Positions 27,425-29,635 are shown, counted from the stretch's first letter. The stretch is 64,000 bases of DNA from Escherichia coli (GCF_030013205.1 NZ_CP122648.1), one strand, 5' to 3'. Program-made: numbers and translations. Notes: a model not told the origin generated them from the letters alone.

Positions 27425-27604
27425 ATGAAAAACGCATTGCAGTTTTTGTTTGTTGCGTTCTGGTTGTTCGCATCATGTATGCCCATCATCTTCACAGCAA
27501 GGTATATGGAAAAAGTTGATGTTTTGATATTAATATTTGGATATATAAATGCCCTTTTTTTAGGGGTGTTCATGGCGGTCATGTGCATTGAATACTGGCG
27601 GTAA
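27425..27604 (+). CDS. small two-TM membrane protein (59 aa), function unknown
   Basis: ATG at 27425 preceded by AGGAGG 7 nt upstream; MKNALQFLFVAFWLFASCMPIIFTARYMEKVDVLILIFGYINALFLGVFMAVMCIEYWR; very AT-rich codons. Confidence 0.5.
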   Translation: MKNALQFLFVAFWLFASCMPIIFTARYMEKVDVLILIFGYINALFLGVFMAVMCIEYWR

Positions 27605-27938
27605 ATACAGCGAACTCCATTGGTTTAGTTGGATATTTACTGTGCTGGACAAAAACGGTTTGCGGGGAAATCTTAGTTAAGTAGAATGACTGCGGGTGCT
27701 TGAGGCTATCTGCCTCGGGCATGGACACCAACGGCAGATAGAGAAAAGCCCCAGTTAACATTACGCGTCCTGCAAGACGCTTAACATTAATCTGAGGCCA
27801 ATTTCATGCTAGACACATGTAGGTTAGCCTCTTACGTGCCGAAAGGCACGGAGAAGCAGGCTATTGTTAACACCAAGTTGTAATGTCCCCTTTGAACCAT
27901 TCTAAAATGTCCCCAGACAATTCTCTGGGGGATTTTTC

Positions 27939-29252
27939 ATGATCAAAGAGACTGTTACGATGAGTCATAAGGAACTCCACCGACTTCAGATTATTCAGGA
28001 ACAAGCTGCGGCACGCATTGGCATTTCTATTCGGCAGGTTAAACGTCTGGTGCAACGGTATAGAAATGAAGGGCCTTCTGGTCTGGTTTCCCACCGACGT
28101 GGAAAGCGTCCTAATAATTCCTTTTCTACTGAATTCAGAGCAACAGTAATTTCACTCCTCAAAGGCCGTTACGCTGATTTTGGACCTACGTTTGCGTGCG
28201 AAAAATTGCGCGAGATACACGGTTTATCTTTATCCGTTGAAACTCTCAGAAAGTGGATGATAGAAGAGGGGTTATGGCGTGAACGCCGTCGTAAAATTGC
28301 CCGTATATATCAACGCCGCATGCGACGACCATCTTACGGTGAACTGATCCAGATTGATGGCTCACCTCATGACTGGTTTGAAAATCGAGGCCCCAGATGT
28401 ACACTGATCGTTTTCATTGATGATGCCACCAGTGCGTTGATGGCGTTGCGTTTTGTGCCTGCTGAAACAACCCGGGCTTACATGGAAACCCTCCGGGGTT
28501 ACCTTAATGATCATGGCGTACCGCTCGCTCTCTACTCTGATAGACACAGTATATTCAGGGTAAATAACCCAGAGCGGGAAGGTGAGCTGACCCAGTTCAC
28601 TCGTGCGATAAAGACACTGGGCATCGAGCCAATCCATGCCAACAGCCCGCAGGCAAAAGGGCGGGTAGAGCGCGCCAATCAGACACTACAGGACAGGCTG
28701 GTCAAAGAAATGCGGCTTCAGAATATCAGTGATATTGAAACAGCAAATGCATGGTTGCCGACCTTTATTGAAGCCTATAACAACCGGTTCGCTACGTCGC
28801 CTCGTACTACTGATAATGCTCATCTTGATGTGCACCATTCTGAAGAGGAACTGGGTTATATCTTCAGCCTACAGGCGAAGCGCGTTCTGTCTAAAAATCT
28901 CACTTTCCAGTACAAAAGCAGTGCGTTTCAGGTACGCAGTGAGGGCCGGGGATATCGACTTAGGCATTCGGTTGTTACTGTATGCGAGAACTTTGACGGT
29001 GAAATTAACGTTCTGTATGACGGGAAAGCGCTGGGCTGGGAAAAGTATGTTGATGGCCCGGAGCCTATACCACTGGATGATGAAAAGAGTGTCCATGAAC
29101 GAGTGGATAATGCCCGTATTGATTTACGCTCAAAATACTATGTTAAACCTAAAGCTGACCATCCCTGGCTTACGCGCCGAACGCAAAGTCATCAGCAAGT
29201 TAAGCCCCCGAAGTTACCTAAAAAGAAGCCTGATCCCGATAAAAAAGATTGA
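27939..29252 (+). CDS. DDE transposase with N-terminal HTH and integrase-core (rve) domain, IS481/ISNCY-like
   Basis: 437-aa ORF; HTH IGISIRQVKRLVQRY; catalytic-looking residues in LIQIDGSPHD, LALYSDRHSIF and KGRVERANQTLQD; basic Lys/Pro-rich C-terminus. Confidence 0.8.
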   Translation: MIKETVTMSHKELHRLQIIQEQAAARIGISIRQVKRLVQRYRNEGPSGLVSHRRGKRPNNSFSTEFRATVISLLKGRYADFGPTFACEKLREIHGLSLSVETLRKWMIEEGLWRERRRKIARIYQRRMRRPSYGELIQIDGSPHDWFENRGPRCTLIVFIDDATSALMALRFVPAETTRAYMETLRGYLNDHGVPLALYSDRHSIFRVNNPEREGELTQFTRAIKTLGIEPIHANSPQAKGRVERANQTLQDRLVKEMRLQNISDIETANAWLPTFIEAYNNRFATSPRTTDNAHLDVHHSEEELGYIFSLQAKRVLSKNLTFQYKSSAFQVRSEGRGYRLRHSVVTVCENFDGEINVLYDGKALGWEKYVDGPEPIPLDDEKSVHERVDNARIDLRSKYYVKPKADHPWLTRRTQSHQQVKPPKLPKKKPDPDKKD

Positions 29253-29585
29253 AACCAAGATCGATTCGGTTGAGTGCATATCCATTCATAGGGTAGATTC
29301 TTAAGTCGCGTTTCTGGTGTTCATTTTCGGGTGGTTTGTTACTTGTTTTACCGGGGATATGCCAGAAACGCGCTGAGTCAGTCTGGGCGGTGCGCGTAAT
29401 GAGGCGTTATGGTAAATAGCCTATGCTAATGTCCGCTAAGAGCAAGAAGCGGAAGTTGGCAGTTTTGTGGACTGTCCCCACAAAAGTGACTACAGAAATA
29501 GTTGCAATTCATAATTGATCATGGGTTGTCAGTTAAACTCGTGGCGATTTAAATAGACTAATTGGGAGTGCGTCCATTACTTATA

Positions 29586-29635
29586 TCTTGTAATGTTAAC
29601 TATCAGAAATTCTTGTAATGTTAACTATCAGAAAT
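29586..29635. repeat. perfect 25-bp tandem direct repeat x2 (tcttgtaatgttaactatcagaaat)
   Basis: Read directly; each unit contains a GTTAAC palindrome; lies just downstream of the flxA terminator. Confidence 0.85.

Follow-up and report, generated by a model that had tools for sequence, protein, structure and literature searches.

The transposase gene of an ISEsa1-type insertion sequence (IS), carried in a 64,000 nt stretch of Escherichia coli DNA (GCF_030013205.1, NZ_CP122648.1; hereafter the window, numbered from its first letter), is preceded by a hairpin whose 3′ arm holds the Shine–Dalgarno (SD) sequence of the gene. The hairpin is real and beyond chance. Judging from RNA folding and from comparison with related elements, it is probably the core of a cis-acting leader RNA structure that hides the transposase SD in ISEsa1-type elements; the structure is stable and is conserved in relatives, and it would be expected to lower translation of the transposase.

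The hairpin at the transposase start

A preliminary description of this DNA had placed a stem followed by a T-run directly 5′ of the ATG at 27939, and direct reading of the sequence finds both as described; the seven Watson–Crick pairs of the stem (27911–27917 with 27924–27930) leave exactly 8 nt to the start codon. The claim that the only SD-like purine stretch, GGGGGA, lies in the 3′ arm was likewise borne out, no other good SD being present, and it forms the best anti-SD duplex of the −20 to −3 region, at −8.4 kcal/mol. Folded as RNA, the 37 nt from 27905 to 27941 give −13.1 kcal/mol (z score −2.23; 3 of 200 dinucleotide shuffles equal it), and the stem is also stable in the 71 nt from 27890 to 27960 (−20.1 kcal/mol, z −2.51), with hairpin z scores of about −2.2 to −2.9 across foldings. 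Outward extension of the stem by AAAAU (27904–27908) and AUUUU (27932–27936) brings it to 13 pairs with one G bulged. When the CCCC/GGGG core is held fixed and the flanks are shuffled, 2.3 % of shuffles fold equally well. A search of Rfam returned no family matching the hairpin itself.

Two direct 12 bp repeats lie in the left end of the element; the second supplies the hairpin’s 5′ arm with its C-run, and the 3′ arm is the SD (Table 1). In the fold predicted for the window’s leader the hairpin (P3) is nested within two further helices, P2 and P1, which involve the start codon and codons 2–4.

Conservation among relatives

The comparison set consisted of 34 distinct left ends, with the start codon fixed from the conserved N-terminus and transposase identities of about 56–100 %. 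The relatives surveyed were enterobacterial elements (76–94 % protein identity), gamma-proteobacterial elements (53–63 %) and approximately 80 metagenomic elements found through a repeat-pair scan. Each left end was folded from repeat 2 to the start codon. A hairpin is predicted in all 34 (mean −12.8 kcal/mol, mean z −2.47), with z below −1 in 31 and below −2 in 23, and in 33 the SD pairs with the repeat-2 region. As a control, the leaders of 34 more distant IS1202-family elements, mostly without these repeats, gave a mean z of −1.1 and a paired SD in 17. The sense strand out-folds its reverse complement in 31 of the 34 left ends (−12.8 versus −9.0 kcal/mol), and 59 of the 357 pairs in the relatives’ hairpins are G–U; the sense-strand bias and the G–U pairs together speak for structure in RNA rather than for a palindrome in DNA. 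When the flanks alone were shuffled around a fixed CCCC core and its G partners, the real sequence was the more stable in 28 of 32 cases. Occlusion of the ribosome-binding site, one of two roles proposed in the preliminary description, thus gains comparative support.

The stem itself takes several forms: CCCCAGA/UCUGGGG in the window, AAAAUGUCCCCG/CGGGGAUAUUUU in the relative L087, CCCCUUUU/AGGAGGGG in many GC-rich relatives and CCCCUUG/CAAGGGG in L026. The loop-proximal pairs vary by lineage with complementarity kept (AGA/UCU in the window, G/C in L087, UUG/CAA in L026). Some clades hide the SD by means of arms that are unrelated to the repeat, namely GACCUCC-GAAA-GGAGGUC and its variant AACCUCC/GGAGGUU.

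The outer helix of relatives has changed on both sides, as in CCUUUGUC/GACAGAGG, CCUGUGUC/GACACAGG and CCUUCGUC/GACGAAGG, with CCUUUGGC/GCCAGAGG and UUUCAC/GUGAAA as further versions. For P1, self duplexes average −11.4 kcal/mol versus −9.5 kcal/mol for cross duplexes (0/10,000 permutations). In the majority register 77 % of positions are paired, compared with 34–60 % when the arms are slid, and in four pairs both partners have changed. Covariation scores 0.225, against 0.160 in shuffles, 4 of 500 of which reach the observed score. These comparisons lend P1 what appears to be moderate covariation support.

Two start codons have been used for this gene. PGAP (ATCC 8739) begins it at the second ATG, 27960, and the 439 aa figure given by ISfinder would imply the same start; plasmid annotations give 446 aa from the first ATG, 27939. 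The first start has the SD and occurs in relatives, and the N-terminal MxKExITM is conserved in homologues. Because of the position of the SD, the occurrence of the first start in relatives and the conservation of MxKExITM, the comparison favours 27939 over 27960, a point of use to genome annotation.

Predicted occlusion and proposed mechanism

Opening of 27925–27945 in an RNA that begins in the hok toxin leader upstream or at the IS tip is predicted to cost about 20 kcal/mol, with an SD unpaired probability of 0.08. For an RNA beginning at 27893 the predicted values are 13.9 kcal/mol and 0.08, and for one beginning at 27915 they are 6.9 kcal/mol and 0.61.

In an RNA carrying the left end of the IS, the C-run of repeat 2 (UCCCCAGA) would pair with the G-run of the SD (UCUGGGGG), and the outer helices would add pairing of the AUG with CAU at 27898–27900 and of codons 2–4 with CUUUGA at 27890–27895. 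The ribosome site would then be buried and little transposase made. At this locus the incoming transcripts would be those from the hok toxin promoter, directly upstream and in the same orientation. Transcripts of the element’s own may either start inside the 5′ arm and escape, as in IS10 and IS50, or carry the hairpin too, as in IS200. In the enterobacterial clade the hairpin and U-run may terminate some transcripts as well.

A broader reading, which we regard as a long shot, is that the 12 bp repeats are read twice, by the transposase on DNA and as anti-SD in RNA (repeat 2 against the SD, and the sequence following repeat 1 against codons 2–4), the leader structure being the gate that decides whether read-through from the toxin promoter yields transposase. 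If true, this would tie transposase expression to the toxin mRNA’s own antisense and processing control.

Several points weigh against SD occlusion as the function of the hairpin. Run on 24 left ends aligned with MAFFT, RNAalifold gave no consensus structure; the clades differ in loop length and in helix register, which defeats this and other column-based methods, and per-sequence folds with explicit pair counts were used in its place. The permutation of hairpin arms among sequences (cross duplexes) was uninformative (3892/10,000) because the CCCC/GGGG core is common to all of them, and the core-preserving shuffle was used instead. The complementarity of that core could have arisen incidentally from two motifs that are each under a constraint of their own. 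The sequences compared are related, their counts are not independent events and the p-values are inflated. In the clade of the window P1 is weak (−6.1 kcal/mol), and its register there, off by one, has no family-wide support. The second ATG at 27960, used by PGAP and ISfinder, is not part of the hairpin, although the purine tract upstream of it does overlap P1. Finally, a sigma-70 promoter scan from the tip to the ATG found none at 9/12; the weak candidates are a −10-like TAAAAT at 27903–27908 (5/6) with a 2/6 −35, and TTGAAC-18-GACAAT, neither of them positionally conserved.

Alternative explanations

The preliminary description had also suggested that the hairpin blocks read-through transcription, and this part fared less well. 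In its strongest form the proposal would make the hairpin mainly an intrinsic (Rho-independent) terminator, possibly bidirectional, insulating the transposase from hok-leader transcription. A terminator scan of 27600–28100 found this as its only site (1 versus 0.4 expected from shuffles); the 8-pair stem with 5 G–C pairs, the 6 nt loop and the tail ATTTTTCATG (A-UUUUU-C) fit the stem, loop and U-tract criterion for terminators. The A-tract at 27904–27907 mirrors the U-tract, and the antisense fold is nearly equal in this element (−13.7 versus −14.1 kcal/mol). U-rich tails are kept by enterobacterial relatives (AUUUUUC in the window, AUAUUUUUC, AAUUUUUC and AUAUUUC), and the left-end terminator of IS200 is a precedent (PMC4513863). 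However, every non-enterobacterial relative, and also L093 from Salmonella (GGGGGAAAGAU), keeps the hairpin while lacking the U-run; GC-rich relatives have spacers such as GGAGGGGCG-AUG, so that the U-tract is not co-conserved with the hairpin, and a U-rich spacer may just track host base composition. Five U’s after an A are, moreover, a weak tract, and with only 8 nt between stem and ATG a strong terminator would kill the element’s own mRNA unless that mRNA started inside the stem. Termination as the main role is unlikely. Some may occur in ISEsa1 itself, but it is not what the relatives have conserved, and SD occlusion appears from the comparative analysis to be the better supported of the two roles because the T-run is found only in the enterobacterial clade.

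Alternatively, the fold may have no selected function at all, a G-rich SD placed 10–20 nt after a C-rich protein-binding repeat inevitably pairing with it. The duplex energies of the hairpin arms are equal for self and cross combinations (−9.42 versus −9.39 kcal/mol), which marks the core complementarity as generic, and once the enterobacterial clade is set aside the core-preserving shuffle shows a modest effect (mean z −1.18, with many values close to 0). An SD with at least four G in a row is atypical, yet nearly all of these relatives have one. Flank complementarity exceeds chance in the shuffles described above, and other clades have arrived at independent anti-SD solutions. We consider an unselected fold quite unlikely, and the predicted occlusion (about 20 kcal/mol) would affect translation even as a by-product.

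Highly improbable is a third reading, in which a palindromic site for transposase binding on DNA (an operator or part of end recognition) is made up of repeat 2 together with a partial copy of it in inverted orientation, the RNA hairpin being incidental: the 5′ arm is indeed the conserved 12 bp repeat, the 3′ arm in several clades is an exact inverted copy extending past the SD (GGGGACAT, GGGACAT), and the 3′ region of ISEsa1 also has a palindrome of the motif (AATGTCCGC...GCGGAAGTT), but the strands fold asymmetrically, the frequent G–U pairs would be mismatches in duplex DNA, the SD is sequestered even in clades whose hairpin arms bear no relation to the repeat, and the canonical right ends of intact relatives hold two repeats in the same orientation with no inverted third copy.

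Left end of the element and the hok junction

Rfam places a full-length sok match (RF01794) at 27694–27865, with 104 bits against a gathering score of 59. In the alignment to an intact hok locus identity extends up to GGCTAT, after which hok continues as G-AAG-CAG and the window as TGTTAAC; flank homology stops at 27864, which puts the left tip of the IS at 27865. The corresponding TGT is where the flanks part in relatives that have several copies or target duplications. On these alignments the IS is inserted inside the hok start codon, with hok and the transposase co-oriented. The left flank had also been considered as the hok 3′ region; this was rejected, as both the Rfam match and the intact-hok alignment show hok 5′ leader and sok.

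The layout of the left end is the same in every relative examined: TGTTArC, 8 nt, GTAATGTCCCC, 14 nt, AATGTCCCC, 20–26 nt with a G-rich SD, and the start codon. The consensus of the conserved 12 bp repeat is T-G/A-T/A-AATGTCCCC. Harmer and Hall (PMC10132070) give the ends of the IS1202 family as TGT...ACA, with a further transposase-binding site lying internally close to each of them, and the two left-end repeats fit these internal sites, binding being presumed. The TAA stops at and before the hairpin base are embedded in conserved end motifs (TGTTAA/TGTTAG, GTAATG and CTAAAATG/GTAGAAATG) that recur in relatives, and the IS contains all three stops in its first 41 nt. The stop in the transposase frame (27903–27905) closes a 13-codon frame opened by a TTG made at the hok/IS junction (27864), and this frame ends at the foot of the hairpin.

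Table 1. Coordinates of the leader structure, the left end and the adjoining features in the window
Feature	Position (nt)	Strand	Basis or remarks
Hairpin stem, tCCCCAGA/TCTGGGGg	27910–27917/27924–27931	+	Direct sequence reading; 7 Watson–Crick pairs and one U–G
Hairpin loop, CAATTC	27918–27923	+	
Hairpin P3, 5′ arm, AAAAU-G-UCCCCAGA	27904–27917	+	Minimum-free-energy and centroid structures
Hairpin P3, 3′ arm, UCUGGGGG-AUUUU	27924–27936	+	Folding; SD inside
Shine–Dalgarno, GGGGGA	27927–27932	+	6 nt 5′ of ATG 27939–27941; within 3′ arm
T-run, TTTTT (U5)	27933–27937	+	Preceded by A27932; followed by C27938, then ATG 27939
Helix P2, CAU with AUG	27898–27900/27939–27941	+	Predicted
Helix P1, 5′ arm, CUUUGA	27890–27895	+	Predicted; just 3′ of repeat 1
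Helix P1, 3′ arm, UCAAAG	27943–27948	+	Predicted; codons 2–4
ISEsa1-type left end	27865–27914	+	Tip TGTTAAC and two direct 12 bp repeats
Repeat 1, TGTAATGTCCCC	27879–27890	+	Repeat search; presumed transposase-binding site 1; GTAATGTCCCC invariant in nearly all relatives
Repeat 2, TAAAATGTCCCC	27903–27914	+	Presumed transposase-binding site 2; contains −10-like TAAAAT
TAA stops, all three frames	27868–27870, 27881–27883, 27903–27905	+	5′ of or at hairpin base
hok 5′ leader/sok region	27694–27864	+	Same orientation as transposase; Rfam sok RF01794
Transposase open reading frame, 437 aa	27939–29252	+	ISEsa1-type; 9 aa in-frame deletion in the helix-turn-helix (HTH) region at the N-terminus
Non-coding 3′ part common to other ISEsa1 copies	29253–29457	+	Similarity stops at about 29457

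Identity and state of the copy

The transposase matches NCBIfam NF033594 (transpos_ISNCY_2) at 456 bits, with a cut-off of 250. The Pfam domains HTH_32, HTH_29 and HTH_28 are above cut-off, and rve_3, at 24.4, is under its cut-off of 26.5. Against the plasmid-borne WP_004196353.1 (‘IS1202-like element ISEsa1 family transposase’) 437 of 446 positions are identical (98 %), the sole difference being a 9 aa gap (SINRHITQE) that corresponds to a 27 nt in-frame deletion. These matches identify the gene as an ISEsa1 transposase of the IS1202 family (formerly ISNCY, IS1202 group), in a copy that has decayed.

The right end of intact relatives consists of two GGGGACATT-type repeats in the same orientation followed by TTGACA. 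Neither a right-end repeat of the GGGGACATT type nor a canonical inverted repeat for the right end was found anywhere in the window, the 15/22 inverted repeat given in the ISfinder entry for ISEsa1 was not located, and, with the right end missing, the window holds no target-site duplication. Because of the 9 aa HTH deletion and the lack of a canonical right end, the copy is a fossil, and its hairpin is a retained family feature rather than active control. PGAP likewise calls the transposase a pseudogene, and it annotates ydfW inside its 3′ end (29103–29252). The setting is a Qin-like prophage, with flxA, ydfV, relBE and hokD adjoining, and the 2.4 kb stretch is found at 80 % coverage or more in 773 complete E. 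coli genomes.

The palindrome GTTGGCAGTTTTGTGG/CCACAAAAGTGACTAC, which has a third ACTGTCCCC motif inside it in the orientation of a left end, lies just past the end of ISEsa1 similarity, at 29455–29493, and may be the remnant of another related left end. A perfect tandem repeat of 25 bp (TCTTGTAATGTTAACTATCAGAAAT, two copies) occupies 29586–29635, between the IS remnant and flxA. Within it, GTAATGTTAACT is the exact reverse complement of AGTTAACATTAC at 27753–27764 in the hok leader.

Toxin genes and other features of relatives

Five hok/sok loci and one ldr/rdl locus, all of them type I toxin loci, have an ISEsa1-type element at the toxin’s start codon, always in the orientation of the toxin. 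Full-length Rfam matches to sok/hok leaders end at the IS tip in the window (27694–27865) and in L001 (1411–1583), L005 (2421–2579), L091 (549–728) and L100 (540–706), and an rdlD (ldr/rdl) match lies just upstream of the IS in Salmonella (L093, from CP019410; 612–677). The intact L093 element has a 15 bp duplication, CAAGGCGGCTATATG (712–726 and 2176–2190), that takes in the SD and ATG of ldr, while in the Aliivibrio copy the duplicated sequence is GCGAAATGCCGAAAA, in which the hok ATG is included (L100, 2135–2150). Because the hok leaders have diverged (by 15–25 %) while the ISEsa1 copies are 98–100 % identical, the comparison suggests repeated targeted insertion at toxin start codons. No description of insertion of ISEsa1-type elements at toxin start codons was found in the literature searched.

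Intact relatives end in ...GGGGACATTTCTGnnTTGnGTTGACA (L010, about 2900–2945; L093, 2140–2175; L098, 1450–1500; L101, 2110–2165), a perfect outward −35 TTGACA forming the right tip. If the ends were abutted in a circle, TTGACA-16 nt-TAATGT (the latter from repeat 1) would make a junction promoter, and its RNA would start near 27893 and still contain the hairpin. Taken together, the −35 at the right tip and the putative circle-junction promoter hint at copy-out/paste-in transposition. In two relatives of about 80 % identity (L004, 4006–4528; L091, 2160–2682) a ParE/RelE-type toxin–antitoxin pair begins 16 bp past the transposase stop on the opposite strand; either the element would carry it as a passenger, or it would mark where the element’s right end is truncated.

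Comparison with known systems

The IS1202 family (ISAjo2, ISAba32 and ISTde1 groups) has been described as having a TGT tip, an additional internal copy, close to the end, of the inverted repeat’s transposase-binding portion, and a large HTH-HTH-DDE transposase, with some members inserting in a site- and orientation-specific manner and ISEsa1 listed with no detectable target duplication (PMC10132070; bioRxiv 10.1101/2022.12.17.520857). The intact relatives of ISEsa1 differ from that listing in having duplications of 15 bp (L093, L100) and 16 bp (L010). A word search of the same two papers found no mention of a hairpin, a stem-loop or a structure at the ribosome site. Only ends, target choice and transposase folds having been described previously, the leader hairpin would add a regulatory layer to the family. 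Among the useful details are that the anti-SD arm is an internal repeat of the transposase-binding type and that a large, mostly metagenomic subgroup has kept the design. At this locus the element also lies downstream of a constitutively transcribed toxin leader, where insulation would matter.

In IS10 and IS50 the extra 5′ sequence of read-through RNA pairs with the ribosome-binding region of the transposase, and RNA from the element’s own promoter lacks the 5′ arm. Fold-back inhibition in these two elements was reportedly worked out by Davis, Simons and Kleckner in 1985, Krebs and Reznikoff in 1986 and Schulz and Reznikoff in 1991. The same logic would need a resident promoter that starts inside or after the 5′ arm, for which ISEsa1 offers only the weak candidate TAAAAT.

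A leader hairpin over the ribosome site of a transposase gene is a textbook means of IS quiescence, and IS200 is the closest documented case. Its 5′ untranslated region contains a stem-loop that sequesters a G-rich SD (AAGGGGGU) and blocks 30S binding, and a bidirectional hairpin terminator at its left end guards against impinging transcription (PMC4513863). Like that stem-loop, the ISEsa1 leader hairpin is predicted to hide a G-rich transposase SD. However, IS200 uses two separate inverted repeats (nt 12–34 for the terminator, nt 69–138 for the SD stem-loop), whereas in ISEsa1 a single hairpin would have to do both jobs. IS200 also has an antisense RNA, art200, whereas the promoter scan of ISEsa1 found no antisense promoter. 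The transposases are unrelated, that of IS200 being an HUH enzyme and that of ISEsa1 of the DDE type, and, unlike in IS200, the anti-SD arm of ISEsa1 is itself a repeat of the transposase-binding type. The SD-hiding leader hairpin is thus ordinary transposon self-restraint, newly documented for the IS1202 family.

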